Shown here one piece after another: positions 872 to 63,642 of a stretch of DNA of 64,000 nt (its first letter is position 1; the number at the start of each line of letters is the position of its first letter). The notes below the pieces were generated by a model. The model was not told the DNA's origin and did no database searches. It worked only from the letters and a program-made list of their open reading frames with translations. The position numbers and the translations under genes are program-made. This DNA comes from Rhizophagus irregularis. Lineage: Eukaryota. The DNA lies in NCBI RefSeq assembly GCF_026210795.1, contig NC_089432.1, positions 3,782,001 to 3,846,000 of the forward strand. The letters run 5' to 3'.

Positions 872-978
872 ATAACTTCGGTAATAAAATGGATTGAGAA
901 AAATCTAGAGAATGAGTATATTCATTATTTTAAATATGATGAATTTAAAATCGATGAAGAAGAAATTGGTAGAGGAAG
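872..978 (+). pseudogene. 5' fragment of a TKL-type protein kinase
   Basis: Reads WIEKNLENEYIHYFKYDEFKIDEEEIGRG, similar to the N-terminus/Gly-loop of the kinases at 31300 and 36985 (WIEEAVDKE...IGTGGFG). No further kinase sequence follows. Confidence 0.65.
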
Positions 979-984
979 GGGTCC

Positions 985-1500
985 GGAAAGATTTTTTTTC
1001 TTTTTTTTCATCTTTATTTTTTAATAAACGATTCTAATGGTTCATTTTTTTTCTTTCTTTAGATGGTTCTTTCAAGTTACTTTGGGAGACATTTTGGTAA
1101 AGTTTTTTATTTATTTCTTCCATCTTTTAACAAACGGTTCCTAACAGTTCATTTCTTTCTCTTTTTAGGCGGTTCTTTTGTATTTCTTGTGGTAAGTTAA
1201 ATTTTTTTTCTTTCTTTTTTTTATTTAACAAAACGTTAACTGGTGGTTAACTAAAATATTTTCTTGTCTTTTTCTTTTTTTTAGATGGTCAGGCCTTTGG
1301 ACGTGTGAAATTTCCAACGGTTGGTTTCTTTTACTTTTTTAAATTCTTTTGAATTAAATTTTTTTATTTTGGTAAGATGTTAACTATCATTTCATTTTCT
1401 TTCTTTGTTTTTAGACAGGTCAGGCCTTTGGATGTGTGAAATTTTCAACGGCCACGCACGTTATACTAGAAAGGTATGATGGCAGAGGAATTGTTGCGAA
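985..1500 (+). other. Intron/micro-exon array A (putative spliced non-coding transcript)
   Basis: Repeated polypyrimidine-TAG acceptors (~1062, 1168, 1284, 1413) and GTAAAG/GTAAGT/GTAAGA donors (~1096, 1192, 1372), with CTAAC/CTAAT branch sites and ~23-35-nt exons. Confidence 0.6.
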
Positions 1501-2345: not shown

Positions 2346-4091
2346 CCAGCTGGATGCCCGCGTTTCACGCGGGCCTGGCTAATTAAAATTATGAAAATCA
2401 GATACCTTTCTGCTAAGCTGTTATATAAAGTCTAGAATGGTTATTAGCATTAATTTGGAATTTTGTGGTAAATAGGGAATCATAGGCTGTGTATGGCAAG
2501 TGATTTTACAGCGCTCACAATCCTTGCGAAATATTTTAAAAATTATTACATATTAATAGGAATATTAATCATTACAAAGTATAACAGATAATGAGTGTCA
2601 GTATAAATAATATGCAATACATTTTTTATTATAATAGTTATTATAATAGTTATAGTGGTTCATTAGGAAGCCGGCAAACCTAAAAAACATTCAAAGAATC
2701 ATTAGACCTAAAAAAAGGTACCAAAATTTAAAAAAAGAAAAGAAAAAATGATTAGTAATTATGAAAAAGAATTTTTTTAAAAAAATTAAAAATATAATTC
2801 AAACTAACCTTCACTCTGAAAGGTACCTCCAAAACCTAAAAAAGAGAAAAGGGTTGTTTCCTACAAAAAAAAAGTTAAATTAGGGACATTTTTTAAAGTT
2901 TAAAATTCATTTTCAGAACTTACCCAAAGTTCTCAAAAATTGATCATCTACTAAAAAAAAGAAAAGAATGAAACATCAATAATGTTTTGTTAAAGAAATA
3001 ATGTTAGGAAAATATTATTTACCAAAATTTACATCTGTCCAAGGTGTTGCAGTACTGTCTAAACTACAAAATATAGAACACAAAATGTTAGTTTTAATGT
3101 TTCATTTCATTAAAAAATAAAAAAAATTAATGAAAAACACTTACAAATTCCATGTCTGGAAAAAGCCAAAGAACCACCCTACAGAATGCAAAAATAAACA
3201 TTAGTAAACATTTTGTTAACTAACATTATGTTAAAAGAAGCATTTTAAAAGAACCTACTAAAATTTCACATGTCCAGAATCACGAACAAACCATATAAAA
3301 AAGGAAGAAACATGATGTTAGTAATGTTTTGATAAAAAATTTTTCAAAGAAAAAATATTCACCACAATTCTGTTCGTGTATAAATTATTCCTTATTCAGT
3401 TATCTAAAAAAATGAAAAATCAAACTGTTAGAAATGTTTGATTAAAAGAAATGTATTAAATCCTTCCTTACCAAATTTCCACGCGTCTGAAGACAAACCA
3501 AGAAAACCACTGATACCTAAAAAAAGAAAGCTTTATTTTTTGGGTTTTTTTTTGGTTTTTTGCATAGTTATTAAATACCTGTAATTGCTGTTATTAGAAA
3601 TGTTCAATTCCCCTGGTAAAATCCTACTTTGAGAGCTGTGCAGGCATTAGAAATTAAAAATTAAATGTAAAAGAAAAGGTGTATTTTTTTTAAAAGAAAG
3701 GGATTTTTTTTCATCATATGGGAAAATTCAGAAACTGAAAAATATTTTTTTTTAAAAAAAAAAAGAAAGAAAATGTGTCGTATGGGAAAATCCAAAAAAC
3801 TTTTTTTTTTAAAAAAAAACAATGATGATTGCTCAATAAATTTTTTATATTTTATATTACAATTAGTACTAATTGCTATAATTTGTTTTTACGCCAATCA
3901 TTTATGCAGCCTAATTCAAGGATTAGAGCTGCTAATCAATGTCAAATGATGCGCCACTCCGAATCCCTATATAAAAATCTGTAGCACAGGGCGCAGACAC
4001 ATGATGATGGACGATCCAATTTAAATCCGCCTTTTTATGCAGGGTAGTCTTAACGTCACGGTCGCACAATGCTTTTTTTTATAGATATAGA
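2346..4091 (-). mobile_element. Non-autonomous Helitron carrying a micro-exon array
   Basis: Minus strand begins A|TCTATATCTATA (4091) and ends with an 8-bp GC hairpin gcccgcgt-ttc-acgcgggc (2356-2374) followed by CTGG|T (2346). A-T target, no TSD. Confidence 0.8.
2700..3580 (-). other. Intron/micro-exon array B inside the Helitron
   Basis: About 8 units of ~110 bp. On the plus strand, ttacc/cttac (donor), a short exon, ct-a(n) (acceptor plus polypyrimidine tract) and ttag/ttagt (branch point) recur regularly. Confidence 0.65.
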
Positions 4092-6149: not shown

Positions 6150-7280
6150 AAGGGAGCCTCCTACAAAAATTCTACACGTTTAAGGACTTCAAAAAGCAAT
6201 CTGTCCAATAACAAGAAGGTTTGAAGAAGCTGAGATCTAAAAAAAAAATAAAATAAACATTAAAAATGTTTCTAATTAAAGAAAACAATAAAAAGTAAGT
6301 TTTGCAAAGAAACTTACCGTCTCAAATCTATCAAAGCCCTTCTATAACTACAAAAAAAAAGTAAAAAGTAAGGATGTTTCCAAACATAACTTACTATTTC
6401 AAGATTCCAATACCCTATTCCGCTATTCGAAACTTTACAGAACCTATAAGTAAATAATTTTTCGCGATGAGGGAGCATTTTAAGTTCTTGTATCCGCTCT
6501 TCTGTATCCAGAATAAAAGTCAAATTTTCGCACTGAAGCCTCACATGTCAAAAAGTCTGGACATCTGAGAAGTATTGAAATGTAGAACCTAGAAAAAGAC
6601 ATGACTGTTTAAAAAAAGAAAAAAGATGATGAAACGTTAGTTAAACGTTTCGTTAAATAAAAATGAAAAAAATTTAACTTACCGCAAGAAATACAAAAGA
6701 ACCGCCTAAAAAGATAAAGAAATGGACTGTTAGGAACCGTTTGTTAAAAAATGTAAGAAATAAATAAAAAATTTTACCAAATGTCTTCCAAAGTAACTTG
6801 AAAGAACTGAACCATCTAAAGAAAGAAAAAAATGAACCATTAGAACCGTTCATTAAAAAAATAAAGATGAAAAAAAATGAAAAAAATCTTACCAGAATCC
6901 TGATATCCCTTTTTCTACTTATTTCTTCTTCATCAATTTAAATTCATCATATTTAAAATAACGAATATACTCATTCTCTAGCTTTTTCTCAATCCATTTT
7001 TTTACCGAAGTCATTTTGTCATTTAAGTTATAATATACTTATTTTTTTTTTAAGAAAAAAAATTTCATCATTATGAACTCTTAATTTTCATTGCATAATG
7101 CAATGATTTTGTCTAATAAAGAAAATATCAAAATGTTGCTGCTAAAGATTTTATTAAACTGAAGAAGGTGAAACAAAGAGGAAGAGAAAAGAAGGGTGAG
7201 ATTGTGAGAAAGGAAAAAGGTTTAAAAAAAAAAGTGGCTGATCTGTTAAAATTGTCACATTAATCACGTGATACATAATT
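6150..7280 (-). other. Inverted paralog of 603-1290: E-box promoter-like region, kinase 5' fragment (7014-6905) and micro-exon array C
   Basis: Reverse complement aligns with 603-1290. ATG at 7014 gives MTSVKKWIEKKLENEYIRYFKYDEFK. Donors at ~6890, 6776, 6680, 6315. Confidence 0.75.
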
Positions 7281-21213: not shown

Positions 21214-24080
21214 GTTTTAATGATCAGATACTGACCGTGAACATAGAATTAAAACTCATTTTATCGTTCAAGGTTATGAAACAGAAATTAAAAATCTTAA
21301 AATCAGATTTCTGAACTTTTAGAAGCTTCTCATCATCCACGTAAATCTTCCTTGGCTGGAACACCACCAGGAAGAGATTCTTCGATCCTCATATTTATTC
21401 ACTTGATGATGTTATTCATCGTCTTAATAATAATGATGACAATAATAATAATAATAATAAAGAGAATGCTGAGAAGAAAGGTAAAAAAGAAGAAGAAACG
21501 TTCTTCAAAGGAAAGTAAGATAAGATCTGATGGTCACTTCCTAGTTTCCAATTCGACTTCTACTAAAATCTCACCTATTGGTCCTTCTTCATCTCATCAA
21601 CTTGGACATGTCGTCAATGATCAAAATTTGGAAGAAACTAAAATCTTATTCACAAAATATGATGATAAAGAAAACGCTGAAGAAGGAGATGATGAAAATT
21701 TGAAAGTTGAATTATTCAAATTAACTCAAAAATTAAGAAGACGTAGCAAAGACCAGAGATAAGCTTGAAAAGGACAAGGAACAACTCAGACGAGATTACA
21801 TGATAATAAGGAGTGAAGGCTCTTTACATGATGGTCCTATTTAAGTCAATTAATAAAACAACCCTCATCAACTAGGAGAACTACTTAAGAGTGAAAGTTA
21901 TGTTGATCAATTGATTCGCAATCATCAAAAAGAAAAAATTGATTTCTCCGATCAATGGTTCAACTAAATATTCTCAAGGTGGCACTGGCTGCTAATCTCA
22001 ACAAGAACATACCGTTATTGATCTTACCCGTACGGTACATCAAATTCAAGCTGATATTGCCATTAAAGAACAACTCGTTTCACAATTGGAACGTGCTGAA
22101 CAAGAATATACTAATATGAAAGCTCAATAGAACATGCTGCTGTTGAACGTGGAATCGAAATTGAAACAATACTCAAGAGTATGCGTGCTCAAATTAAACA
22201 ACTAAAAAGTGAAAAGATGCGAATGATGAAGCGTATGAAAGATGAAGCTGAACGTGTCCGTGAAATAACTGAACATAATCAACGTGAAATTCAAAGTCTT
22301 CGTCGTAAAGAAAAAGCTGCCCAAGAACAAAAGTAAGAACTAATGAAATGCAAAAAAATTATGCTTGAAAAGAGACAGGAAGAAGTTTCACTAACGAACA
22401 TTAAACTTAAATCAGTTATGGAATTACTCAAACGAACCACTACTCCAAAGTCATTTACCAAGGCTTTCCGTAATCACATACGAAAACAATCAATATCTAG
22501 AAATGATGAAGACAGAAAGGAATCGGGACGATCCTCTGATGATTTTAGTCCTATCTATGATGAAGTATTTGCCAGTGGTTATGATAAGAAAAAACTTCTT
22601 GATGAAGAAATCTATAAATATATTAGTGATCGTCAAACATTGACAATGATGATGGATGAATGGATCGTTAAAAGAATAATTACAAGAGGAGAAGGATGAA
22701 TTATTTGTAGAACGTGAAAAGATAATTACTAGTGAAATTGGAAATGAGTTAGGAGGAGATGCTCAAGCATTAGATGATAAGATTGAGATGATCACCTCGG
22801 AAATTGCTTATATTAATGCTAAGATTCATTCTTTACAATTAAGTATTGCCGGTGAATATAGCAAAGAATCTGAAGATAAATCACGAAAGAATAGTATCAA
22901 GTCTAGTAAAATTGAACGAAATTTTGATGAATATGAAAGTTATACAATATTGGAATCCTTCTTTAAGGAAATTGTTGATTCTCGAACTGGAGATTGGTCT
23001 TGATGAATGACCTTAGAACAACAAGAAAAGACAATTATGGATTTAAGAAAAACTTTATTGGCCATGAGAAGAGCTGCAGTTCTTACAACAAGTGAATATG
23101 AAAAGAAAAACAGAGAACTTGAAGAAGCTTTACGTCTCGGTGAAAGATCACCAAGTCCATCAACTCTGGAAAAGAGAGAATTGCAGATGGATGATATTGA
23201 AAATAGTACTTTCAATGCCATTTCCTTATTTGATCATAAATTAGATCAAGCTTATGCAGAAGTCGAAGCTGCAGTATCAGCAGGAACTCTTGGAACTTCT
23301 GGTCAACTGGGAACGCAATTCATATCTCTTTGACGATGATGCAGCTTACTTCTCTTCACTATTGTTTGCAAGTCCAATGAATACTGGTAATAATAGTGCA
23401 AATTTCTTAAGACCACCAATACCTCCCGCTTGGTTAAATCTTCAACCACGTGAAAATGTGCTCGAACAAACTAATGAAACGATGCCAGATGTTCCAACAA
23501 ATCCAAGAAGAAAAGATTCTGGTAATAGTGAATCTAGTGGTGATAACAATAATAATGTAAAGAGAAGGATTTCAAATGGTCGAAGATTAAAGAGACCATC
23601 TAATGGTCCATCTACACCATCTACACCATCTACACCATAAGATGAAAACATTTCTCTTTTAGAATGTACAAGATCACTTAATAGTCAACCTTTAGAACGC
23701 ACAAAATCACTCAATAGTCAACCTTTAGAACGTACAAGGTCCATTAGTCAACCTTTGGAACGTACTAGATCCAGTGACCAACATTTAAAACGTGCCAGAG
23801 CTGGTGTTCAACTTTTAAGTTCACGACGAAGTTCGCTTTGTGATGGGTCAACAATTCTTGCACATAATCGACAAAGTAGTTCAATAAGCATGGGTTTCCA
23901 CTTAGAATCAGGTGGTGATGGTTTCACGTGATAGCGGATATTTTAGCAGCGGTGATAAGCGAAGATCACAAAGCAGTATGGAACGACGAGGTTCCAAAGT
24001 ATAACAGCAGCATATCATATACGACAAAGTCCATATGGATGTAGTTCACCCGATAGTGATGATGCAGCAAGCGTAACATA
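21211..24080 (+). pseudogene. Decayed duplicate of the kinesin stalk/tail (no motor domain)
   Basis: Colinear with ~41136-44400, with multiple stops, frameshifts and internal deletions (ORF pieces 21352, 22343, 22788, 23007, 23254). Confidence 0.95.
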
Positions 24081-39121: not shown

Positions 39122-41381
39122 ATGACCTCAACTTCCGTACGGTAAGTAACTGTAAATCAAAAAAATCAAATAATTCCTTTACTATTTTAATCTTTATTCC
39201 TATTTCTTTCACATTCTTGTTTTCTTCTACCTTTTCTCCCTACCGTTTTTCGTTTCTCACTCATTTTCCATTCCGTCCTCTCTAGAGTTGCTTTGAGAGT
39301 AAGACCACTCAATAACAAAGAAATACTACAAAATTGTAGTGAATGTTTAACAATAATACCTGACGCACCACAAATACTCATTGGAACCGATAAATCATTT
39401 ACATTTGATTATGTATTCCCATCGGATACTGAACAAGAAGAAATATTTCATGATTGTGCAAGTCCGCTAATAGATAAACTCATGGAAGGGTGAGTACACA
39501 GGAAAAAAAAATTCGGCCTCACGTCGCACGCGCAAGAAGAATCAAATTTATATCAAAAAAAAAATTTTTTATCAAATTCGGATTTTTTTTGATGATATCA
39601 CTTTTATTTTATCGTGTCATTGTTAAATTATTATTTATTATTATAATTTAATTATTTTAGTTATAATGTCACAATCTTAGCATATGGGTAAGTAAATAAC
39701 ATAATTAACAATTATTATCTAAATTAATTTGCATGTTTATTATTTATTTATTATTTATTATTCAACCCTTCCCCCCCTCCCTACTTTTTTAGTCAAACTG
39801 GTAGTGGTAAAACATATAGTATGGGTACTGCTTTATATGGTTCAGATATTCCACCCGAATATCAAGGTATGTTTGTCCCTTGCATCATTTTTTAAAATGA
39901 TTATCAAAAGTTGATCATATGTTTATCAAATTAATGACGTCATTTATTATTAGGTATCATTCCACGTGCTATAAGTAAATTATTTGCCGACCTTAACGAA
40001 CGAAAAGAAAAAAATCCTTCCTATGAATTTGAAGTTTATGTATCATTCTTAGAATTATATAATGAAGATTTTATAGACTTACTTAATAAAAAAGGAAAGA
40101 GTGATTTAATGATAAGAGAAGATGCAAATAGTCAAATATATTGGGCTGGTGTAAAAGAAGTTCAAGTTTCGGATTCAGATGAACTCTTAGGGTATGTTTC
40201 TATTATGTTTATAATATGTTATATAAAAATATAAATATAATTTATCAATTTTACTATCAAAATTTTTTAGACAATTACAAAAGGGTTCACTGTGTCGAAC
40301 TGTCGCTTCAACAGATATGAATATGGTATCTTCAAGATCACATGCTATATTTTCCGTAATACTGAAACAAACAAGAGTAGAAAATTTAAAAGAAAATAAA
40401 GAAAATGATGCTCCACCACCTGAAACTTCAACCACTTCAAAAAGAAAGAGTAAACAAAAATTATTAACATCAAAAGTAACTTCAAAATTTCATTTCGTAG
40501 ATTTGGCTGGTTCTGAAAGGGTAATGTATTTAATATATATATATATTTCTTCCTTAATATTCTTGATTATTTTCTTAATATTAATTTTTTTTTTTTACAT
40601 AAATAGTTAAAGAGAACTAACGCCGTAGGTGATAGAGCAAAAGAAGGAATAGCAATTAATGGTGGTTTACTAGCCCTTGGTAATGTAATTAGTGCTCTTG
40701 GTGATGAATCAAGAAAGGTCACTCATATTCCTTATAGAGATTCAAAATTAACACGTTTATTACAAGATTCACTTGGTGGTAATAGTCAAACTCTTATGTT
40801 GGCTTGTGTTTCACCAGCTGATTCTAATTTTATGGAAACCTTAAGTACACTAAAATATGCTAATCGTGCTCGTAATATTAAGAATAAAGTTAGTGTTAAT
40901 GAAAGTTATGGTGGTAATTCTATTGAAATAAATCAATTACGTGGTCAAATAAGTAGATTAAAGATGGAGATTCAAACTTTACGAGCTGGTGGTTGTAATG
41001 AAGAAACAAGTCGTAAACATGAAGAAGAAATTGAGAGTCTTAAAAATGAATTAGGAATGACAAAATGGAAACTTAAAAATGTTGAACAAGAACTTATCAC
41101 TACAAAAGCTGAAAGGAACACTCTTTTAATGGAAATTAGTTTTAATGATCAAGATCTTTCAGATGCTGATCGTGAACATAGGATTAAAACTCATAATATC
41201 GTTCAAGGTTATGAATCAGAAATTCAAGATTTTAAAAATCAAATTTCTGAACTTTTAGCTGCACAAGCTTTTCAACATCTAAGTAAATCTTCTTTGGCTG
41301 GAACAACAACAGGAAGAGAGAAAGGTCATATCAAATTCTCCGATCCTCATATTTATTCATCTGATGAAGATATTCATAATC

Positions 41382-41416
<35 letters not shown>

Positions 41417-44230
41417 GAGAATAGTGAGAAGAAAGGTAAAAAGAAGAAGAAACGTACTTCAATAAGAGCTGATGGTCACTTCCCAGTTTCTGATGAAACT
41501 TCTACTACTAAAATCTCACCTGTTGGCCCTTCCTCATCTCATCATCAACTTGAACATGTCGTAAATGATCAAAGTTTGGAAGAAGCTAAATCCTTATTCA
41601 CACCATATGATGAAGACGAAGAAAATATTGAAGAAGAAGATGGTGAAGATGGTGAAAATGTTGATGGTGAATCATTCAAATTTACTCGAAAATTGAGAAG
41701 GCGTAGCAAGACAAGAGATAAGCTTGAAAAGGCCAAGGAACAACTCAGACAAAGTTACATGATAATAAAGAATGGAGGTTCTTTACATGATGATCCTATT
41801 TTAAGTCAATTAATAAAACAACCTTCATCAACTAGGAGAACTAAGAGTGAAAATTATATTGATCAAATGATTCGCAATCATCAAAAAGAAAAAAGAAGAT
41901 CAAGCAGTGTATCTTTCAGTGAAATTCAAATCATTGAAGTACCAGAATGGCAAGAATCTAATCCACAACCACCACAACCTACTCGTCGTACTTCAAATTC
42001 AGGTTGTTCTGTTAGTTTCTCCGATCGACCAATTTCTTCTGGTTCAACTGAATATTCTCAAGATAGCACTGATTGCTCATCTCAACAACAACAACAAAAT
42101 GTTATTGCTCTTACCCGTATGTTACATCAAATTCAAGCTGATATTGCTGTTAAAGAACAACTCGTTTCACAATTGGAACGTGCTGAACAAGAATATACTT
42201 ATATGAGAGCTCAATATGAACAAAAATTGGCTGATATGCAAGAAGCTATAATTACCTTACAACAAGAAAGAAATTCTGCTGTTAAACGTGCTCAAAATGC
42301 TAATACTGGCGTTAGTACTCGTGATAAGAATTCAATCCTTGTCGAACTTAAATCTCGTTATGAACACAAGATGAAACGTTTAATCCAAGAAATTGGTGAA
42401 CTTCGTAGAAAATATAATGAAGCTACTCAATCTACAACCACGTCAAAGAATCAAAATGAAACAATGCTCAAGAGTATGCGTGCTCAAATTGAACAACTAA
42501 AAAGTGAAAAGATGCGAGCGATGAAGCGTATGAAGGATGAAGCTGAACGTGTCCGTGAAATGACTGAACGTAATCAACGTGAAATTCAAAATCTTCGTCG
42601 TAAAGAAAAATCTGCTCAAGAACAAAAGAAACGTTTTGAAAGAACTAGTGAAATGCAAAAAATCATGCTTGAAAAGAGACAGGAAGAAGTTTTACAAACA
42701 AATAGTAAACTTAAATCAGTTATGGCCTTACTCAAACGAACCACTACTCCAAAGTCAATCACCAAGGCTATCCGTAATCACAAACGACAATCAATATCTA
42801 ATGATGAAGACAGAAAGGAATCGAGACGATCCTCCGATGATATTAGTCCTATCTATGATGAAGTATTTGCCAGTGGTTATGATAAGAAAAAACTTCTTGA
42901 TGAAGCAATCTATAAATATATTAGTGGTCGTCAAACATTGACAATGATGGATGAATGGATCGTTAAAAGAAATAATTTACAAGAAGAGAAGAATGAATTA
43001 CTTGAAAAACGTGAAAAAATAATTACTAGCGAAATTGGAAATGAGTTAGGAGGAGATGCTCAAGCATTAGATGATAAGATTGGGATGATCACCTCGGAAA
43101 TTTCTTATATTACTGCCAAGATTCATTCTTTACAATCAAGTATTGCAGCCGAACAAGAAGAAAAAGCTGCTGAAAATAGCAAAGAATCTGAAGATAAATC
43201 ACGAAAGAATAGTATCAAGTCAAGTAAAATTAAAAAGAAACTTTCTTTCCTCTTACCAGAAAATGCCACACCTGAAGCATCATATGACGTTGCTGTTCGC
43301 ATTTTACGAAATTTGGATGAATTTGAAAGTTATACAATATTAGAATCCTTCTTTAAGGATATTGTTGATCTTAAAACTGGAGATTGGTCTCGACAAATGA
43401 CCTTGGAACAACAAGAAAAGACAATTATTGATTTAAGAAAAACTTTATTGGCCATGCGAAGAGCTGCAGTTCTTACAACAAGTGAATATGAAAAGAAAAA
43501 CAGAGAACTTGAAGAAGCTTTACGTTTCGGTGGAGGATCATTAAGTCCATCAACTCCGGAAAAGAGAGAATTACAGATGGATGATATTGAAAATAGTACT
43601 TCCAATGCCATTTCCTTATTTGATCATAAATTAGATCAAGCTTATGCAGAAGTCGAAGCTGAAATATCAGGAACTTTTGGTCAAATGGGATCATTATCAA
43701 GACGTAATTCATACTTCTTTGATGATGATGCAGCTTACTTCTCTTCTTCACCATTATCTGCAAGTCCATTGAATACTGGTAATAATAGAACAAGTTTCTC
43801 TTCAAGACCACCAATACCTCCCGGTTGGTTAAATCTTCAACCGCGTGAAAAAGTACTCGAACAAACTAATGAAACAACGCCGGACGTTCCAACAAATCCA
43901 AGAAGAAAAGATTCTGGTAATAGTGAATCTAGTGGTGATAACAACAATAATACAAAGAGAAGGAGTTCAAATGGTCGAAGATTAAAGAGACCATCTAATG
44001 GTCCATCTACACCATCAACACCAAAACCATCAACACCAAAAGATGAAAATATTTCTCCTTTAGAACGTACAAGGTCCATTGGTCAACCTTTGGAACGTAC
44101 CAGATCCAGTAATCAACATTTAGAACGCGCCAGAGCTGGTGTCCAACTTTCAAGTTCACGACGAAGTTCGCTTCGTGATGGGTCAACAATTCTTGCACAT
44201 AGTCGACAAAGTAGTTCAACAAGCACTTAG
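39122..44230 (+). CDS. Kinesin-4 family (KIF4/KIF21/KIF27-like) motor protein, 7 exons
   Basis: Exons ~39122-39141, 39286-39489, 39661-39687, 39793-39867, 39954-40191, 40271-40520, 40607-44230. Motifs [19 protein letters not shown] (P-loop), [38 protein letters not shown]; long coiled coil. Confidence 0.95.
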
Positions 44231-49512: not shown

Positions 49513-51172
49513 CACTCCCGCGCCAAAAGTTTAGGACCACCCAATAAATTTTTAAAAAAATGGTTTTTTTTAACCAACTAATATTTTAATAAACTATAAA
49601 AAGTAATTTATAATTACTTTAATGGATAAAGAACAATTTTTTATTATTAGTTAAAAATGTAAAAATAAATTATCGGTAATTTAGTTATCCAGCATTTCGC
49701 AAAGTCACGTGACTAATGTTTACATCACGTGATTTTTTGTGATGAAGGAAAAAAATTCGTAAAATGAATAAAATATAAAAACTTTTTATTAAACCTCTTG
49801 TTATGTATAATAAAAAAAAAAATTCTGGTCCATAACTTCACAAAATTAAAAGTTAAGATAATGAAAAAAAATTTTAATAAAAAATGCTTAATTTTTGGTA
49901 AAAATGTAAACAAAAAAACCAATTTACCGAAACTAACTTTATAAAAATATAATTAAAACATTCCTCAATATCTTGTGGGATATCCACGAGCTTTTATAAC
50001 TGCCTCAATTCTACGGTTCATGCTCTCCACAAGCTTTTGGTAGACCTCACATGAAATTTCTGACCAACATTCTTGAAGAAGTTCCTCCAATTCTCCTAAA
50101 TTTTTAGGATGATTTTGCTTTGCTCTTATACGCCTCTCAAGCTCATCCCAAAGATGCTCAATGGGATTGAAAGGTTCGGCTCTGCCCCGGCCATGATAGC
50201 AAATTTATTCCCATTTCTTCACAGAACTCTCTTGTTCTTGCACTTGTATGAATCGGTGCATTATCTTGTTGGAACAAATAATCACCATTTTCTTCTTCAA
50301 ATCTTTCCAAGAAAGGGATCACGTGATAGCCAAGTATCTCTTCTATATACCTTTGACTATTAACTCGACCATCAATTCTTACCAAAGGGCCCAATCCAAA
50401 CCATGTAAAACACCCCCACATCATGACTCCACCTCCACCATGCTTCATGGTTGGAACAAGGTAATTAATATCATATTTTTCTTTTGAAGACGCCAAACCC
50501 GAATTTTTCCATCATTCTGGAACATAGTAAATCGAGACTCATCACTCCATACAATTTTTTTCCAATCATTTATAGTCCATAAGCGTCTTTCACGAGCCCA
50601 ATTTAAGCGTATTTTTCGATTACACTCACTAACACAGGGTTTTCTTAAGGCTGCACAACTATTATATCCCATTCCATACAATGTTCGTTGTATGGTGCGC
50701 CTACCTACATCATTTCCAGTGGATTCCATAAAAATTTTTCTAATTTTTTCTTCAGGTTCACGTCGGTTTTTATTAATAATAGCTTTAAGATGCCGTTTAT
50801 CCCGTTCAGTTAGTTTCTTAGGACAACCACTTCTGGGAGCGACAGTAACAGCACCAGTTTCACGATATTTTGCTATTATATTATGAATTGTAGTTTTTCC
50901 ATAGCCTGTTTTATTTGAAATAGCTCTTTCTGAATCACCGGCTTCATAAAAACCGATAACTTTTCCACGTTCAAAATCCGTTAGTTCTCTTTTTTTAACC
51001 ATTTTGCTTTTAAACAAAAAAAAAAGCTGCTAAAATTTTGTGTAATTATCATTACTAATCAATAAATAACGTAAATAGTTTTTATTTATGTTACACAAAT
51101 GCGTAATTATTACTGTTTAGGTGTTGTTTATGGCGATCATAAAGGTGGTCCTAAACTTTTGGCGCGGGAGTG
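49513..51172 (-). mobile_element. Full-length Tc1 (DD34E-type) transposon
   Basis: TA|CACTCCCGCGCCAAAAGTTTAGGACCACC ... exact 29-bp reverse complement|TA; encloses a transposase. Confidence 0.97.
49965..51002 (-). pseudogene. Tc1 transposase with two frameshifts
   Basis: HTH region, WSDESRF, KHGGGGVMMWG, FQQDNAPIH, WPGQS..NPIEHLW, GYPTRY*; frame breaks near 50480 and 50175. Confidence 0.92.
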
Positions 51173-51407
51173 TATGTACCTGATATGTGTAGTATTAATG
51201 CAGAAAATCGGGCACCTGATATGTGTAAGATATGTGTAAATATATATATCGTATACGTATCGGGTACCGATATGTATATGATATGTAAATGATATGTATA
51301 TGATATATATATTTACACATATCTTACACATATCGGGTACCCAATTTTCTGCATTAATACTACACATATCGGGTACATATCTGATACATATCTGCTACCC
51401 GATATAC

Positions 51408-54400
51408 CACTGGTCAAAATCAATTCTATCGGGTACATATCAGGCACCTATATATCGGTGGCTAATCAGATAAATATCGGGTATTTTTACATATCGGGTA
51501 CCCGATAGCTAAGCTATTAGTCACTGATATTGTATATCGGGCATTGATCTATCTTACACATATCAGGTACCCGATATGTAAATTTTAATACGTAAGATTT
51601 TTATTTTGTACAACGTACTGTATTATATATAATCCGTTTCAACTAAAATTTTTTATTTAAATTCATTTTTTAGATAATTTTTATAAATAATTTTCTAAGA
51701 AATTTTAAAAGTCCATTTGAATAATATTTAATAGGAATTTTATTTAAGAAACTTTTAGATAGATTTTTTTGAGAAATTTTTTAAGAGTCCGTTTGGAAAA
51801 ATTATTTTTTTAACTAAGAGGATCATTTAAAGCATTTTTGATAGAGAATTTTCTAAAGATTTGTTTGGAGAGATTATTTTTGAGAATTTTTTAACTAAAG
51901 GGACCGTTTGGAACATTTTTTGATAGAGAATTTTCTAAGAATTCATTTGGGAAATGGTTTTTTGAGAATTTTTTTAACTAAAAGGATCATTTGGGCATTT
52001 TTTGATTGAGAATTTTCTAAGAGTTCGTTTAGGGAAATTATTTTTTGAATTTTTTAATTAAGGGGATCGTTTAGGGCATTTTTTGATTGAGAATTTTCTA
52101 AGAGTTCGTTTAGAGAGATTATTTTTGAGAATTTTTTAACCAAAGGGACCGTTGGAATATTTTTTGATAGAGAATTTTTTTGATAGAGAATTTTCTAAAA
52201 GTTTGTTTGGAAAAATTATTTTTTGAGAATTTTTTAACTGAAGGTATCATTTGATAGAGAAATTTCTAAGAGTTCGTTTAGGAAAATTATTTTTTGTATT
52301 TTTTAATTAAGGGGATCGCTTAGGACATTTTTGATAGATAATTTTCTAATAATTCGTTTGGAGAGATTGTTTTTGAGAATTTTTTAATTAAAGGGAACGT
52401 TTGGAACATTTTTGATAGAGAATTTTCTAAGAATTTGTTTGGGAAATAGGGTTTCAAGAATTTTTTAACTAAAAAGATCATTTAGGGCATTTTTTGATTG
52501 AGAATTTTCTAAGAGTTCGTTTAGGGAAATTATTTTTTGAATTTTTTAATTAAGGGGATCGTTTAGGGCATTTTTTGATTGAGAATTTTCTGAGTTCGTT
52601 TAGGGAAATTATTTTTTGAATTTTTTAATTAAGGGGATCGTTTAGGGCATTTTTTGATTGAGAATTTTCTAAGAGTTCATTTAGGGAGATTATTTTTGAG
52701 AATTTTTTAACCAAAGGGACCATTGGAACATTTTTTGATAGAGAATTTTCTAAGAGTTTGTTTGGAAAAATTATTTTTTGAGAATTTTTTAACTGAAGGT
52801 ATCATTTGATAGAGAAATTTCTAAAAGTTCATTTAGGAAAATTATTTTTTGTATTTTTTAATTAAAGGGATCGCTTAGGGCATTTTTGATAAAGAATTTT
52901 CTAATGATTCGTTTGGAGAGATTGTTTTTGAGAATTTTTTAACTAAAGGGAATGTTTGGAACATTTTTGATAGAGAATTTTCTAAGAATTCGTTTAGAAA
53001 ATGGTTTTTCGAGAATTTTTTAACTAAAAGGATTATTTAGGGCATTTTTTGATTGAGAATTTTCTAAGAGTTCGTTTAGGGAAATTATTTTTTGTATTTT
53101 TTAATTAAGGGGATTGTTTAGGGCATTTTTTGATAGAGAATTTTCTAAGGATTCATTTGGAGAGATTATTTTTGAGAATTTTTAAGAGTTTGTTTGGGAA
53201 ATGGTTTTTTGAGAATTTTTTAACTTAAAGGATCATTTAGAGCATTTTTGATTGAGAATTTTCTAAGAATTCGTTTAGGGAGATTATTTTTTGTATTTTT
53301 TAATTAAGGGGATCGCTTAGGGTATTTTTGATAGAGAATTTTCTAAGAATTTGTTTGGAAAATGGTTTTTTGAGAATTTTTTAACTAAAAGGATCATTTA
53401 GGGCATTTTTGATAGAGAATTTTCTAAGAGTTCGTTTGGGGAAATTATTTTTTGAATTTTTTAATTAAGGGGATCGTTTAGGGCATTTTTTGATAGAGAA
53501 TTTTCTAATGATTCGTTTGGAGAGATTATTTTTGAGAATTTTTAAGAGTTTGTTTGGGAAATGGTTTTTTGAGAATTTTTTAACTTAAAGGATCATTTAG
53601 AGCATTTTTGATTGAGAATTTTCTAAGAGTTCGTTTAGGGAGATTATTTTTTGTATTTTTTAATTAAGGGGATCGCTTAGGGCATTTTTGATAGAGAATT
53701 TTCTAATGATTCATTTGAAGAGATTGTTTTTGAGAATTTTTTAACTAAAGGGAACGTTTGGAACATTTTTGATAGAGAATTTTCTAAGAATTTGTTTGGG
53801 AAATGGTTTTTTGAGAATTTTTTAACTAAAAGGATCATTTAGGGCATTTTTGATAGAGAATTTTCTAAGAGTTCGTTTGGAGAAATTATTTTTTGAATTT
53901 TTTAATTAAGGGGATCGTTTAGGGCATTTTTTGATAGAGAATTTTCTAATGATTCGTTTGGAGAGATTATTTTTGAGAATTTTTAAGAGTTTGTTTGGGA
54001 AATGGTTTTTTGAGAATTTTTTAACTTAAAGAATCATTTAAAGCATTTTTGATTGAGAATTTTCTAAGAGTTCGTTTAGGGAGATTATTTTTTGTATTTT
54101 TTAATTAAGGGGATCGCTTAGGGCATTTTTGATAGAGAATTTTCTAATGATTCGTTTGGAGAGATTGTTTTTGAGAATTTTTTAACTAAAGGGAACGTTT
54201 GGAATATTTTTGATAGAGAATTTTCTAAGAATTTGTTTGGGAAATGGTTTTTTAAGAATTTTTTAACTAAAAGGATCATTTAGGGCATTTTTGATAGAGA
54301 ATTTTCTAAGAGTTCGTTTGGGGAAATTATTTTTTGTATTTTTTAATTAAGGGGATCACTTAGGGCATTTTTGATAGAAAATTTTCTAATGATTCGTTTG

Positions 54401-56691
54401 AAGAGATTGTTTTTGGGAATTTTTTAACTAAAGGGAACGTTTGGAACATTTTTGATAGAAAATTTTAAGAATTTGTTTGGGAAATAGTTTTTTGAGAATT
54501 TTTTAACTAAAGGATAATTTAGGGTATTTTTGATAGAGAATTTTCTAAGAGTTCGTTTAGGGAAATTATTTTTTGTATTTTTTAATTAAGGAGATCGTTT
54601 AAGGCATTTTTTGATTGAGAATTTTCTAAGAGTTCGTTTAGGGAAATTATTTTTGTATTTTTTAATTAAGGGGATCGCTTAGGGCATTTTTGATAGAGAA
54701 TTTTCTAATGATTCATTTGGAGAGATTGTTTTTGAGAATTTTTTAACTAAAGGGAACGTTTGGAACATTTTTGATAGAGAATTTTCTAAGAATTTGTTTG
54801 GGAAATGGTTTTTCGAAAATTTTTTAACTAAAAGGATTATTTAGGGCATTTTTTGATTGAGAATTTTCTAAGAGTTCGTTTAGGGAAATTATTTTTTGAA
54901 TTTTTTAATTAAGGGGATCGTTTAGGGCATTTTTTGATAGAGAATTTTCTAAGGATTCGTTTGGAAAGATTATTTTTGAGAATTTTTTAACTAAAGGGAA
55001 CGTTTGGAACATTTTTGATAGTGAATTTTCTAAGAGTTCGTTTGGGAAATAGTTTTTTGAGAATTTTTTAATTAAAAGGATCATTTTTAGGGCATTTTTT
55101 GATAGAGAATTTTCTAAGGATTCATTTGGGGAGATTATTTTGAGAATTTTTTAACCAAGGGATCGTTTGAAACATTTTTGAGAGAATTTTCTAAGAGTTC
55201 GTTTGGGGAGATTATTTTTAAGAATTTTTTAACCAAAGGGATCGTTTGGGACATTTTTTGACAGAAAATTTCTAGGAGTTCATTTGGGGAAATTATTTTT
55301 TGGGATTTTTTTAACTAAAGGGATCATTTAGGACATTTTATTTTTAATAAAGAAATTTCTAAGAATTCATTTGGAAGATTTTTTGAGATTTTTTTAATAA
55401 ATCTTCTAAGGGTTCATTTGAAGAAATTTTTTAAAAAAGTTTTTTAACTAGAAGGGTCATTTCAAATATTTTTTTGATGAGAAATTTTCTAAAGGTTCAT
55501 TTGGAAAGATTTTTTTTTTTGATAATTTTTTTAATCGAAAGGGTCATTTGGATTGAGAAATTTTTGTTTTACGACGTAATTTTACCAAATTTAATTATAA
55601 ATGTATTCAGGCTATAAAATAACATGTGGTAAGTTACATTACGTAATATTGTTATCATGTGATCACATGATTTAAATATTTACATTTCGCATTTTTGTTT
55701 ATCTTATTAAAACCTTTTCTTCGTTCTCAATTTTTTTTTACTTAAAAACACAATTTTTTATCTATTTAATATATCCAGAAATACATATTTTTATTATTTG
55801 TTATATCTAGAAATGCATAAAAAGGTATATATTACTAATATTTCTTTTCTTTATTAATGTTTTTCTACCATTTTTTTTTCGTTTCTTTCTTTTCTTTTAC
55901 TAATACTCCTACTAATATATTTTTTATTATTTTTTTCTACTATATTAACATTTTTACTATTTAATATTTTCTATTAATATTATATTACTACTGATATACG
56001 TTCTCTTTCTACTAACATTTTTTATTCTACTAACTTTTTCTTTCTGCTAATGTTTCTACTAATATTTTCTATATTTATATATCTATACTAATATTTTTTA
56101 ATAACATTCTCTTTTCTCTTACTAATATATTTATCATTAATACTTCTTTTAAATAATCAAACAGGTATAAGCAAATAAGTGATTTTATTTTTATGCTACT
56201 TTTAGTAGAAGTTATATATTATATATATTTATTCAAGTATTCAAGTATAATTAGTATAATTGTTTTTTTTTAATTAAAAAGTGTAAATAAATTTAAATTG
56301 TAATAAAGTTTTGAATTAAAATTAAAAAAAATATATAAATTATGATTGCATTTTATAATTTTTTTGCCTGAATTAAATTATAAATCTACTAGTATTAATA
56401 CGAAATCATTATCCTATATCTATCCGTCTGATATCTGTATGATATCTGTATGATATCTATATGATATATATCATAATATATCGGGTACCCAATAAGTCTA
56501 TTTAACTACCCGATATGTGTAAGATGTATATGTGATATGTACATGATGTGTCACCGGTTTTCTACATTTCTACTACACATATCGGGTACCTGATATGTGT
56601 AGCATTGTTAAATATCATACACATATATCACATATATTGTACACATATCAGGTACCCGATAGGTACCCGATAGTATTAATTTTGACCAGTG
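51408..56691. mobile_element. 5.3-kb non-autonomous CACTA/EnSpm-type element containing a satellite
   Basis: TAC|CACTGGTCAAAAT...ATTTTGACCAGTG|TAC (13-bp TIR, 3-bp TSD); subterminal atatcgggtacc repeats at both ends. Confidence 0.88.
51690..55550. repeat. Satellite array, ~40/80-bp unit with higher-order variants
   Basis: gatagagaattttctaagagttcgtttagggaaattattttttgaattttttaattaaggggatcgtttagggcattttt and variants repeated for ~3.9 kb, degenerate at both edges. Confidence 0.95.
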
Positions 56692-57795: not shown

Positions 57796-58327
57796 CACAG
57801 GTCGAAAAGTGAAAAATCAGGCATCAATCAGTCACCAATCGGTCACCAATCAGGTACCTGATTGGTGACCGATTGGTGCCTGATTGGCATTTTCGCCAAA
57901 TACCAAATCACCAATCAGGCAGTTTGCTAACTTTTGATCCAGTGATCAGAAAAAGATGAAATATAGCTCATTGGAATCGTCTCAACAAGACGAATCTAAT
58001 GGTAGTAAAATCGCATCTTTAGGATTAATACTTGATGAGAAATTAAGTAAAATATAAAAATGAAAATGTATTATTTATATTTTATTTAATATTTTATTAA
58101 CTATCAATCCTAGAGATGCGATTTTACTACCATTAGATTCGTCTTGTTGAGACGATTCCAATGAGCTATATTTCATCTTTTTCTGATCACTGGATCAAAA
58201 GTTAGTAAACTGCCTGATTGGTGACTCGTATTTCTTAAACGAAAATATAATCAGGCACCAATCAGTCACCAATCAGCTACCTGATTGGTGACCGATTGGT
58301 GCCTGATTTTTCACTTTTTGACCTGTG
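57796..58327. mobile_element. CACTA-type (CACAG) foldback MITE with 3-bp TSD
   Basis: TTC|CACAGGTCGAAAAGTGAAAAATCAGGCA...TGCCTGATTTTTCACTTTTTGACCTGTG|TTC; nearly the whole element is one inverted repeat. Confidence 0.92.
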
Positions 58328-58526: not shown

Positions 58527-60247
58527 TTAAATGTGAAATTTTCTATTTAACGGTAAAATGGCCAAGTATTCAGTACGTTTGTATTTAAATTTTGCTGGAA
58601 CAAATCTACCTAATATGTGATGAACTGGAATTATACTATTAACCGAAGAATTAAAAAACTCCTTTTTCCAAAGTTCCGGATCATTCGTAAAATCATCAGA
58701 ATCTTCGCTGGAAAAAAAAAATCTGATGTTTGCAGTCGCAGCGGGTTTATACCAATTTACAAAAGCCAAATAATATTCCGTCAGACCATTTGGAAGATGA
58801 ACTGTATGTTTGAAATAGAATTGTACCTGGCCAGGATATGTGTCTATATCATTTTCACGTTGTTCTATAAAACGTGCTAAGATATAAGAGCTTCTAATAT
58901 ACCTTTTGGATAATATTGACCCAAAATATTCTGCACTGATGCGCAATCTGCCACATTGTGTGATATTTCCAGTTACAGCAATGTAATTTTCAGTTGATGA
59001 AGAAGGATCTAACCGTGGTCGGCTAAAATTATATTCTTCATAAGCGTGATTGTAGTAATCAACTAGTAAATCCAAAATATCATCCGGTAATATGACATTC
59101 AATTTTATCGGACTTAAAAGTTCTCCAGGATATTCTTCCGTTCCTGTTGCCCCGCCAGAAACCAGCTTTTCAGATATATCTAAAAATGCCTGTAATTCCT
59201 CACTTTCGAGAGATTCATTTTCGTTATCGTCAGTTGTATCATCATTTAAATCAAGTATTTGAAAAATGGCCTGATGATTTAGAGCCAATGTATTGAATCT
59301 TCGTTCAATTTGAGAACTCTGCATCATAAATCGCATAATTTCCGGTTCAATTTTTCGTCTACTATTAGGTAAACTCCCTGTATAATTGTAAAATCGTAAG
59401 TAATAATTCTGAATAATTTGAATAATATTATTGTAAATACCAACCAAGAATTCCATTCATCCTTTCAAAGGAGAAATACCAAAATGAGTAAAGAGGACCG
59501 TAATCTTTACAACATTTGTTCAAGTGTAATGAAAGATGTAAATTTGGTGTTATTGAAACTTCTCCGTAATTCGTTTTGATAAGTTTCAAAATTTCAATTA
59601 AATGTTCATGTGCGTCATCTAAATTTTTGATTGTAACAATCCTTCAGACTAATATAGAACAAGCTTGGCTGAAATGTACTAAGATTTTCCGATCTTCTTG
59701 GTCCAAAAAATCCCAAAGAACAACTCTGGCATAAATCAGGAAAAAATTTTTCCATTCGTTAGCCGTTAAATTAGAAAATCCTTCCCCAATATCTATTTTA
59801 TGAGGAATTCGACCGATTTCTGATGGTGGATGAATATTGTTCATGTTTTTTTGAATTTTCGTCAGATCATCCATATTTATTTTACCATGTCCTAACCAAA
59901 GTTGTTTTACGATAAATGATGCAATTCCTATAAATAAATTATGCATCGGGTCCACAGGTAAAAATCGTATCAGATCGAAATAAGACAAACGGAGCATTTC
60001 TGACCATCTCGCGTGATATTGCTTCGCATGTCTTTTTCTAGCTTCGTTGCTTTTACATTTTCTCCATTCCAAAGCCATTTCTCGATAACTATTCACGCTT
60101 TTAGCAACAAACCATTCATTAATAACATCCATGCCACTAAAATTTCTATTTCTTGCAACCTTTAAGCATCTGTGACAGCTTACATTGGCTGAATAATGGC
60201 CACATAATTTTCTAGCAGCTGGTATATCGCAGCAACAAGCAATTACT
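58527..60247 (-). pseudogene. EnSpm/CACTA-family transposase, 5'-interrupted, one in-frame stop, one intron
   Basis: CDIPAARKLCG, VDPMHNLFIG, LTANEWKNF, TPNLHLSLHL..DYGPLYSFWYFSFERMNGILG; TGA at 59644-59646; intron ~59444-59378; YPGQVQFYF..LAFVNWY tail. Confidence 0.9.
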
Positions 60248-61225
60248 CACAGGTCGAACAGATGTCATTGTCGCAAAATTTGCCTGGAATTTTTCTGGCA
60301 AATTGAGAATTATCCCGATAAATTGGGGTAAATTGTGTTACAATTTTGGGATAATGGAGGACTTACAATTTGGCAAATTTTGTCAAAATGGCAGAATTCT
60401 TACAGAATTCCTAATTCAAATGTTGAGAAATTTTTCAGTAAATTATCATTAATTGTGGGAAATTTTAGGTAAATTTTTAGTAATTTTATGTAAATTGTAG
60501 TGAATTTAGTCAAATTTTTAGTAATTTTATGTAAACGTAATGCAAATTGTGGTGAATTTAGTCAAATTTTTAGTAATTTTATGTAAACGTATTGTAAATT
60601 GTGTAAATTTTAGGCAAATTTTTAGTAATTTTATGTAAACGTAATGCAAATTGTAGTAAATTTAGTCAAATTTTTAGTAATTTTATGTAAACGTAATGCA
60701 AATTGTGGTGAATTTAGTCAAATTTTTAGTAATTTTATGCAAACGTAATGCAAATTGTGGTAAATTGTAGTGTATTTTTAGTAATGTTATATAAATTGTT
60801 GAAAATTTAGGTGAGTTTTTCAGCAATGTTGTGCAAACGTAATACAAATTGTGGAAAATTGTGGTGAATTTTGCATTTTTTCGGTAAATGTTAGCTAAAC
60901 TTTTGATAATTTAGTGAAATTTAGGATAATTTTGGACAATTGAGTGAAAAATGTTTTACTGATTTTGTACAATTGAGTGTAAACAGTATAAACACAACAT
61001 TTTCGGAGACAATTTAGTGAAATTTTGCAATAATTTCGGACAATTGAGTGAAATTTTGCAATAATTTCGGACAATTGAGTGAAATTTTGCAATAATTTCG
61101 GACAATTGAGTGAAATTTTGCAATAATTTCGGACAATTGAGTGAAATTTTGCAATAATTTCAGACAATTGAGTGAAATTTAGTAATAATTTTAAACAATT
61201 TAGTGCAAATACCATGACAATTTAA
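60248..61225. mobile_element. Partial CACAG-terminated element with tandem repeats (~59-bp at 60470-60880; 31-bp at 61008-61200)
   Basis: CACAGGTCGAA (same terminus as 57796) starts exactly where the transposase frame breaks; gacaattgagtgaaattttgcaataatttcg x ~5-6; other end not found. Confidence 0.65.
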
Positions 61226-61239
61226 AACACTGGTTTAAT

Positions 61240-63642
61240 AATTTTACATAATTTATTACAATATTATTTATTAATAAATGCACAATTATTATTTAACGAT
61301 GAGAATCTATATTAATCTATATTCATCAGATATCCAATAATCCATGGGTAATCCGCACATCTAATTCATTCATGTATCTCCGATGCCAAAGTAGAAGCTG
61401 GTAAAAACCTACAAAAAAGAAAGTAAAGAAACGTTAGTTAACGTTTCTTAAAAAAAAATTAATAAAAATTAAGTTTCACAACCAATGTTGCGAAACTTAC
61501 CGGTTCGTTTTGATTTCCATTATCCAAACGTCCGAAACCTACAAAAAGTAAAAAAGAAACGTTAGGTAATGTTTCTTTTAAAAAAAAAGAACAAAAATTA
61601 AGTTTCGCAATGTAACATTGCGAAACTTACCGGTCGTTTCATTCATTCTAACATCCGGAACCTACAAAAAGTAAAAAAGAAACGTTAATTAACATTTTTT
61701 TTAATAAAAAAAAACAAAAATTAAGTTTCGCAATGTAACATTGCGAAACTTACCGGTCATTTCATTCATTCTAACATCCGGAACCTACAAAAAGTAAAAA
61801 AGAAATGTTAGTTAACGTTTCTTTTAATAAAAAAACAAAAATTAAGTTTCGCAATGTAACATTGCGAAACTTACCGGTCATTTCATTCATTCTAACGTCC
61901 GGAACCTACAAAAAGTAAAAAAGAAACGTTAATATAAACGTTTCTTTTAATAAAAAAACAAAAATTAAGTTTCGCAATGTAACATTGCGAAACTTACCGG
62001 TCGTTTCATTCATTCTAACGTCCGGAACCTACAAAATTAAAAGAAAGAAACGTTTAGTATCGTTTCTTTAAAAAAAATTAATAAAAATTGTTTCGCAACA
62101 CAATGTTGCAAAACTTACCGGTTCGTTTCGAAGTTCATTATCCAAACGTCTGGAATCTACAAAAATTAAAAGAAAGAAACGTTTAGTATCGTTTCTTTAA
62201 AAAAAAATAATTAAAAAAATAAGTTTCGCAATACAATATTGCGAAACTCACCGGTTCGTTTCAATTTCTATTATCCAAACGTCCGGAACCTACAAAAAGT
62301 AAAAGAAACGTACGAAATAAAAGAAACGTACGTTAGTATCATTTCTTTAAAAAAAAACATAATTAAAATTAAGTTTCGCAACAATTGTTGCAAAACTTAC
62401 CGGTTCGTTTCGAGTTTCAAACGTCTGGAACCTACAAAAAAAAAGAAAGAAACGTTAGTTAACGTTTCTTTTAATAAAAAAAATCAATAAATTAAGTTTC
62501 GCAACGATTCGTTGCAAAACTCACCGGTTCATTTCATCCAAACGTCCGGAACCTACAAAAAGAAGGAAAGAAATGTTAGTTAACGTTTCTTTTAATAAAA
62601 AAAAAATTTAACAAAAAAAAGAAAATATTACCTTTCTTCCAAAGTCCGGGTCGTAATTTCGTCTGGCGTTCCTACAAAAAGAAGAAAGGAAACGTTAGAA
62701 ACGTTTCCTAAAAGAAATTAAAAAAAAGTAAGTTTTGAACATGAAACTTACCATTTCACTTTTCGAAGTTGAAGACCTACACAAAAGAAAAATAGGAAAC
62801 GTTAGAAACGTTTCCTTACAAAAAAAGAATTAAAAAAATTTTTTTTAAAAAAGTTTCGAAGCGAACGCTTCAAAACTTACCATTTTCGTTTCCTCGTTTC
62901 CTAAGTCAAAAATACCGAAAGACCTAAAAAAAAATAAAGGATCGTTAAAAACGATCCTTATAAAAGCAAAAAAAAAAAAAATTTATTTTAAAGTTTCAAA
63001 GCGAAACGCTTCGAAACTTACCATAATTTCAGTAGTCAAAACATCAAAAATCCTACAAAAAAGAAAGAAAGGAAACGTTAGAAACGTTTCCTTACAACAA
63101 AGAATTAAAAAAAAAATTTAAATTTAAAAAAGTTTCGAAGCGTTTCGCTTCGAAACTTACCATTGTTTTTCTGAAAGACGGTTCCGGGAAGGGGAAAGAG
63201 AATGGGGAAGGAGTGGGAGGAAAAAGGGAAGGGGAAGGGTGGAAGAAGAGGAAGGGGAGAAGAGGAGAGAAAGAGGGAAGGGAAGAGAGAAAGAGGGAAG
63301 GGGAAGGCGAGAGAAAAAGGGAAGGGAAGGGAAAGGAGAAAGAGGGAAGGGAGGAAGGTGAAAGAAAGAGGGAAGGGGAAGGTGAAAGAAAGAGAAAGGG
63401 GAAGGGGAAAGGGGAAGGAAAGAAAGAAAGGAAGAAAGAAAGAGGAAAGGGGAAGGTGAAAGAAAGAGGGAAGGGGAAAGGCGAAAGAAAGAAGAGGTAA
63501 AGGCCGTGAGAAAAAAAAAATTAAGCTTTTGCTAAAAAAGCTTAATTTTTTTTTTCGTTATACCGCAGCTGAAGCTGCAGTAATTATTAAGTAATATCAC
63601 GTGACGCACGTGATATATAATTTTATATAAATAGGGCTTTCC
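61240..63642 (-). ncRNA. Putative multi-exon non-coding transcription unit: 14 hairpin-bearing introns and 13 internal micro-exons (array D)
   Basis: Donors GTAAG/GTGAG/GTAAT at ~63160, 63021, 62880, 62751, 62631, 62524, 62400, 62251, 62118, 61997, 61874, 61753, 61630, 61500; branch-point-like sites and polypyrimidine-TAG acceptors; exons 25-43 nt. Transcription itself is not shown. Confidence 0.6.
63186..63500. repeat. GA-rich low-complexity tract
   Basis: gggaaggggaaggtgaaagaaaga-like units, almost purely purine on the + strand. Confidence 0.9.

Follow-up and report, generated by a model that had tools for sequence, protein, structure and literature searches.

The minus strand of the 64-kb window analyzed here (the whole stretch of Rhizophagus irregularis DNA, 64,000 nucleotides) carries, at 61409-63160, 14 tandem GT-AG introns of 79-111 nt each with near-ideal splice signals, separated by 13 exons of 25-43 nt. 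It is one member of a sizeable and apparently undescribed family of non-coding arrays of repeats. The introns are genuine: two of them are seen spliced in a few RNA reads. A sequence-only reading of this DNA had drawn attention to two hairpins in the introns; beyond that reading, the host of the introns is found to be non-coding and the repeat unit belongs to a dispersed multi-locus family with common start and end motifs. The explanation that we prefer, tentatively and as somewhat short of probable, is that the dispersed non-coding arrays grew by tandem duplication of a micro-exon with its intron, and that the two predicted hairpins pair with the near-ideal signals and in this way put a brake on splicing.

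Anatomy of the array

The window is AT-rich and codes for Sel1, kinesin, ML-domain and Tc1-type proteins, the ML protein having 99% identity with one from Rhizophagus irregularis. The features of the array and its borders, all on the minus strand, are as follows, those outside the introns being assigned from sequence.

63594..63629, minus: putative promoter, with a TATA-like TATATAAAA (63629-63621) followed by a palindrome with two CACGTG boxes (63616-63594)
63510..63587, minus: common 5' motif AATAA..C[C/T]GC[A/T]GC..GC, then an AAGCTT hairpin
63161..63500, minus: CT-rich putative first exon, up to donor 1; locus L066 has a comparable CT-rich exon before its first donor
63053..63160, minus: intron 1, hairpin 1 (HP1) at 63130-63158, hairpin 2 (HP2) at 63070-63092
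62924..63021, minus: intron 2, HP2 variant GGATCG/CGATCC at 62937-62959
62777..62880, minus: intron 3
62672..62751, minus: intron 4, shrunken HP1
62553..62631, minus: intron 5, without HP1; weak donor GTAATA, donor position putative
62432..62524, minus: intron 6
62290..62400, minus: intron 7, degraded HP2; spliced out in reads
62157..62251, minus: intron 8, spliced out in reads
62029..62118, minus: intron 9
61539..61997, minus: introns 10-13 (61906-61997, 61785-61874, 61662-61753, 61539-61630)
61409..61500, minus: intron 14, HP1 at 61470-61499, HP2 at 61426-61449
61267..61408, minus: putative last exon; it stops near TATTAATAAA (61276-61267), which may be a poly(A) signal

All 14 introns possess a U2-type set of donor, branch motif, pyrimidine tract and AG acceptor, with the branch motif CTAAAC in introns 8 and 9 and the weak donor in intron 5. 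Introns 10-13 are recent tandem duplicates of 121-123 nt, with identical HP1 and exons of 31 nt. The paralogous locus L066 shares the upstream block and the first intron with the window, with different exons; the CACGTG pair of the putative promoter and the AAGCTT hairpin are both kept there. The 5' motif (GCAGC) is present upstream of the array in five sequences (the window, L027, L036, L050 and L066), and TATTAATAAA or a similar A-rich motif is found within 400 nt past the last module in 12 of the 34 tails examined.

A protein-coding micro-exon gene was considered and rejected. When the exons of the window array are joined in silico, all frames are closed (the longest ATG ORF is 52 aa), and exon lengths in the family are frame-blind (40/38/35 modulo 3); the run of 3n+1 exons in the window array is not general in the family.

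Several palindromes are associated with the array. In the window (63500-63616) and in L066, three of them (the double CACGTG, GCAGC/GCTGC and the AAGCTT stem) follow one another before the array, and CACGTG occurs also directly after the array in several loci. At the exon junctions of window 61500-62552, splicing would create the palindrome GAACCG/GTTC (GACCG/GT in the youngest units) at successive joints.

Two hairpins at the splice signals

All eight stems quoted in the sequence-only reading are present in the DNA; they had been written as the plus strand, and the introns are on the minus strand. HP1, which was said to start at intron position +3, is located at about this position in 13 of the 14 introns, being full-length in 12 (12-13 bp, 28-29 nt), shrunken in intron 4 and missing in intron 5. 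HP2, scored over 10 positions, surrounds the branch point in 14 of 14, in a degraded form in intron 7; the last HP2 (61426-61449) lies just beyond the span 61470..63160 to which the hairpins had originally been assigned. Each hairpin is followed by a U-rich tract, and a GAAAC core is common to both. Compared with dinucleotide shuffles, 13 of the 14 introns fold with z-scores between -4.0 and -7.6, intron 5 being the exception (-0.6); the energies with which the window introns fold are similar for sense and antisense. An Rfam comparison of these introns identifies no family at gathering score (best match 29 bits vs gathering 70).

The proposal that the hairpins mask the 5' splice site as well as the branch point holds in part, at the level of predicted pairing. 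Pairing is predicted for donor positions +4 to +6 in 12 of the 14 window introns and for the branch A in 11 of them, but the donor GU is often open, with HP1 arms extending over the whole GU in only 19 of 129 cases in the family, and the CU of CUAAC is mostly in the loop.

A dispersed family of arrays

Metagenome contigs were searched with a pattern combining the branch, acceptor and donor signals and leaving out the partner arms of the hairpins, which therefore were not selected by the search. The 66 loci returned include 58 that were kept and 8 that were dropped, seven as lacking an array and mostly coding-dense (L015, L020, L026, L030, L034, L051 and L052) and one, L049, as a duplicate of L050. 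Many loci represent one array from different assemblies, so that independent arrays are considerably fewer than 58. The window and the 58 loci contain 288 introns, 231 of these distinct, with HP1 in 147 and HP2 in 194 of the 231; about 36% of the family introns have no recognizable HP1, and many arrays are decaying. Partner arms are retained in 56% (HP1) and 74% (HP2) of the 231 introns, compared with 0.6% and 0.3% in shuffled sequences. The main donor of the family is G/GTAAGTTT, and the branch motif CTAACG or TTAACG is present in 185 of the 231 introns, 21-33 nt from the AG. The exons are far less uniform: 113 of them form 64 clusters, with a median identity of 0.50 vs 0.43 in shuffled sequences, and exons of the same units have no excess folding (mean z 0.10).

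A covariance model search, proposed in the sequence-only reading, was run on the family loci. The model, built from 13 window introns, yields 253 matches at E<=0.001 in the 68 loci searched. It produces no matches in the seven dropped chance loci or in the three viral loci, the viral contigs containing 3 single pattern matches; among the kept loci, L018, L023, L029, L045 and L055 have no match at E<=0.001. The introns of ordinary genes differ from those of the family. None of 17 heuristically picked coding introns used as control contains either arm; these introns are AT-rich with weak signals, and the median energy of their branch window is -0.3 kcal/mol vs -8.0 kcal/mol in the family (p=1e-9).

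Weak covariance-model matches are found elsewhere in the window, at 969-1168 (plus strand), 3179-3267 (minus strand) and 6237-6694 (within 6150-6900, minus strand, the strongest); the presence of degenerate family members at 6150-6900 and the other sites suggests high genomic density. L018 (321-1169 in array orientation) has exons of 53-54 nt and G-rich intron starts in place of HP1, with two frames open over five exons, which could be a coding exception or a chance one. In L017, L022, L005, L006 and L013, runs of short units with a U-tract and a TAG acceptor, without a donor and without a branch hairpin, are located beside full units.

Genomic context

The flanks of the arrays are transposon-rich overall, with the kind and orientation of the neighbors varying among loci: Tet/JBP (L024, L027, L050), Plavaka (L062), hAT-type (L029, L055), RNase H (L017) and kinase (L028). 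In L029 (1-476), four HP2-only introns are present, and a zf-BED/hAT-type transposase ORF has its ATG 13 nt past the last acceptor. In L024, L027 and L050, Tet/JBP dioxygenase ORFs are located 1-3 kb downstream of the arrays on the same strand. The named relatives of the L024 Tet/JBP protein are from Glomeromycota only, with 33-70% identity (40-47% for R. irregularis), and this dioxygenase family is widespread in Glomeromycota. These relatives hint that the arrays may range beyond R. irregularis.

In the window, two transposase-like ORF fragments (58527-60246, minus strand), which we take to be of the CACTA type, are found on the array's strand some 1.1 kb downstream of it; a relative bears the name transposase-domain and shows a weak DUF4218 match. 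Tandem repeats of 52 nt and 31 nt occupy 60450-61210, between the array and the fragments. Other repeats in the window include a 3.6-kb satellite (51806-55401) with units of about 81 nt, higher-order periods and a strong strand skew (GC skew 0.4-0.6), on either side of which are palindromic repeats rich in GGTACC (about 51170-51590 and 56400-56690), and a MITE-like region (57810-58310) with inverted repeats at 58000-58132 and 58249-58308 and a partner block near 57815-57910. At 21301-23640 and 39191-44230 (plus strand), a broken paralogue of the KIF21-like kinesin gene and the long-ORF copy are about 19 kb apart.

Covariation of the hairpin arms

In an alignment of the 13 window introns with HP1, 95.7% of the cells pair, compared with 38-50% in slid controls. 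Of 23 pairs, 7 show a change in both partners, a level reached by 10 of 500 shuffles. A tree-aware test (parsimony on a noisy tree, not R-scape) detects 19 same-branch double changes in HP1, 16 of which restore Watson-Crick pairing (3.4 expected; the non-partner control gives 1.5x and is 12% complementary), and 30 in HP2, 22 of which restore it (5.3 expected; control 2.5x, 23%). The earlier claim that both arms change together is thus borne out, with covariation beyond relatedness in this rough test. The inner HP1 stems are paired at 2.41 of 3 positions vs 1.60 in shuffled sequences (41 haplotypes); in the inner stems, several bases have changed at once with perfect pairing. In a separate count of 47 'long HP1' stems, six are spurious pairings with the U-tract and are still included.

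The kinds of departure from pairing bear on whether the stems are maintained in RNA or in DNA. On the transcribed strand, the 153 pairs of window HP1 include 8 G-U, 0 A-C and 2 other departures, the eight wobbles corresponding to perhaps 5 independent events, and window HP2 contains 2 G-U vs 5 A-C. Across the family, the counts are 21 G-U vs 13 A-C for HP1 (p=0.23) and 32 vs 56 for HP2 (p=0.014), the latter opposite to a wobble preference, an A-C excess that is partly expected because the branch C is constrained. With CpG pairs only, G-U vs A-C is 23 vs 16 in HP1 and 11 vs 24 in HP2; exon CpGs reveal no strong background bias (9 TG, 6 CA). Copies in decay, together with the constraint on the branch C, may make the wobble test less sharp. 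Since G-U is not favored over A-C family-wide, DNA template switching may explain the compensations; the accessible part of bioRxiv 10.1101/2021.04.15.439925 describes multi-base compensated changes as a product of such switching. The outer, CpG-bearing stems are fixed on both splice signals while the exons turn over, and this conservation of the partner arms favors constraint. Between selection on RNA structure and template-switch mutation, the alternatives offered in the sequence-only reading, the evidence is divided: constraint is favored by the partner arms, but the lack of a family-wide wobble bias does not favor pairing at the RNA level.

Splicing in RNA reads

Poly(A) reads under the same species label (4 runs, at most 3 samples, 2 studies) were placed on 61200-63200. 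For intron 7, an exact joint of 111 nt with CT..AC ends is found in 6 reads (2 in X22, 4 in X24), and for intron 8, an exact joint of 95 nt with the same ends in 5 reads (2 in X21, 3 in X24); only 2 reads for each intron are in runs recorded as RNA, the rest being from X24, the kind of which was guessed. Removal at the predicted ends is therefore seen for 2 of the 14 introns, in reads whose source may be an allele or a close paralogue. The poly(A) reads cover the array, introns included. Most of the placed reads are 90-99% alike and 57-82% run on into unlike sequence; therefore they come largely from related loci, so that splicing of the family is thinly shown and intron retention is not measurable from them. 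Intron-covering reads are no gauge of retention also because short-read seeding disfavors splicing over exons of 25-43 nt, look-alike loci exist and DNA carry-over is possible. Three loose-end motifs extracted from the reads have no match in the 66 loci.

A possible brake on splicing

Under the preferred explanation, HP1 would be the first to fold as transcription proceeds, in competition with U1 for donor positions +3 to +6, and HP2 would bury the branch A, so that U2 would find a toehold in the (U/A)ACU loop alone. Each intron would then be spliced slowly or conditionally, and 14 of them in series could hold most transcripts on or near spliceosomes. The likely outputs would be nuclear retention and the feeding of small-RNA silencing or, for arrays that act as leaders, damping of a downstream transposon gene. 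Template switching would probably supply the multi-base compensations, with selection keeping the outer stems. The silencing step is suggested by analogy with Cryptococcus, where, according to the part of PMC6643885 available (citing Dumesic 2013), stalled spliceosomes set off siRNA, and by the many unannotated small-RNA loci of R. irregularis, 41% of the total in the available text of PMC8647823, which also gives about 24% of the genome as uncharacterized repeat. A far-reaching extension, which we consider unlikely, is that arbuscular mycorrhizal fungi possess genome-wide, purpose-built 'splicing-trap' cassettes, in which strong introns, each locked by inverted copies of its own donor and branch point, would stall spliceosomes and thereby feed Argonaute pathways or throttle neighboring transposon genes; some of the Rhizophagus repeats that lack a class, and some of its small-RNA loci that lack an annotation, could consist of such cassettes.

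Alternative explanations

Less probable than the brake, although a serious possibility, is that the palindromes are a matter of DNA. The inverted copies would have arisen once in the ancestral unit and been kept paired by replication template switching, or would serve, within a repeat associated with transposons, as sites at which proteins bind inverted GAAAC/GTTTC; the introns would be real, and the RNA stems would have no selected role. The absence of a family-wide wobble preference and the perfect multi-base changes of the inner stems, which follow the template-switch pattern, are compatible with this origin, as are the GAAAC core in both hairpins, the palindrome-rich block upstream of the array and the transposon-rich flanks. 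It is harder to reconcile with the coincidence of both palindromes with splice signals, the lack of excess folding in exons of the same units, the persistence of the CpG-bearing outer stems as the exons turn over, and the 8 G-U vs 0 A-C in window HP1. It is improbable that the hairpins instead assist splicing, with HP2 offering the branch loop to U2 and local folds preventing long-range pairing and skipping among identical units, so that the micro-exons would be joined in order. The looped CU of CUAAC, the often open donor GU, the accurate splicing of introns 7 and 8 and the more frequent retention of HP2 than of HP1 (194 vs 147 of 231) fit such a role, but pairing is predicted at donor +4 to +6 and at the branch A, and the introns seen spliced are those with the weakest or most open HP2.

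The two remaining candidates concern what the introns themselves could be. Tandem non-coding exons and conserved structured introns resemble the SNORD116 and C19MC hosts, and with HP1 at the intron 5' end and a U-rich tract after each hairpin, the array could be a host transcript for intron-encoded small RNAs of the tailed-mirtron, agotron or stable-intron type, with throw-away exons. This is decidedly improbable: the local stems are of 11-15 bp and the window hairpins of 28-29 nt, lengths that do not accommodate a Dicer duplex of 21-24 nt, the intron ends are unpaired, and the Rfam comparison yields no family at gathering score. The mirtron-like nature raised in the sequence-only reading accordingly fails on stem length, despite the anchoring at the 5' end. 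The same reading had also raised an introner-like mobile intron, and self-insertion of this kind is very improbable. High copy number, stable predicted structure and compensatory changes are shared with fungal introner-like elements (PMC3609843, accessible portion), and one HP2-only array (L029) runs directly into a transposase ORF; however, the family spreads as tandem units of exon plus intron, no solo insertion is found among the coding introns (0 of 17, a small sample), and no terminal inverted repeat joins the intron ends, the folds being two local hairpins.

Implications

Through the family, part of the dark matter of R. irregularis gains an exact anatomy and a model with which to search. 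Should the stems act in RNA, the family offers hundreds of natural variants for asking in what way structure over the splice signals adjusts splicing and leads into silencing. If they are maintained in DNA, it is an unusually clean case for separating template-switch compensation from selection, such compensation being a long-standing reason for caution where covariation is taken to prove an RNA function. Gene callers, we infer, may render such arrays as spurious hypothetical proteins.

Comparison with known systems

Intron stems that are able to alter splice-site use are known, e.g., the donor hairpins of the RPL30 type. In the SNORD115/116 and C19MC clusters, as here, the repeated unit is a non-coding exon plus a conserved structured intron. 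The arrays differ from these clusters in that there is no C/D or H/ACA family match and no stem of pre-miRNA size, and the structure lies over the splice signals. The SCANR pathway of Cryptococcus reportedly acts on weak signals in transposon mRNAs, whereas here strong signals lie under structure. By analogy, a similar logic might apply, in which poorly spliced transcripts lead to siRNA (PMC6643885, in the part available).

Structured yeast introns, as described in the accessible text of PMC12350175, likewise contain stems able to alter splice-site use; those stems mostly avoid the canonical sites and belong to single coding genes, whereas here both signals are covered, 14 times in series, in a repeat family. 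Gomafu/MIAT (PMC3116199, available portion) is similar as a non-coding RNA with repeated UACUAAC-like branch motifs, but its repeats are exonic decoys, in contrast to motifs inside complete introns. The introner-like elements of Dothideomycetes (PMC3609843) and the sister (stw)introns of Hypoxylaceae (PMC8469720), as far as the accessible parts of both sources go, are also spliceosomal introns that occur in many copies and are predicted to fold stably, and for the former, compensatory changes are reported as well; they insert singly in unrelated genes, whereas the arrays grow in tandem together with a non-coding exon. The Hypoxylon introns have terminal inverted repeats of 45-55 nt, with the catalytic G, A and G frequently unpaired (PMC8469720, accessible part), in contrast to two short hairpins on the donor and the branch point. 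Full-text literature searches and the available portions of PMC10234402, PMC8647823, PMC9757828 and PMC6399891 yield no description of such arrays, although subscription papers or supplements could contain one. The family combines structured introns that cover their own splice sites with a tandem-host architecture; the features tested set it apart from mirtrons, from snoRNA hosts and from introners.
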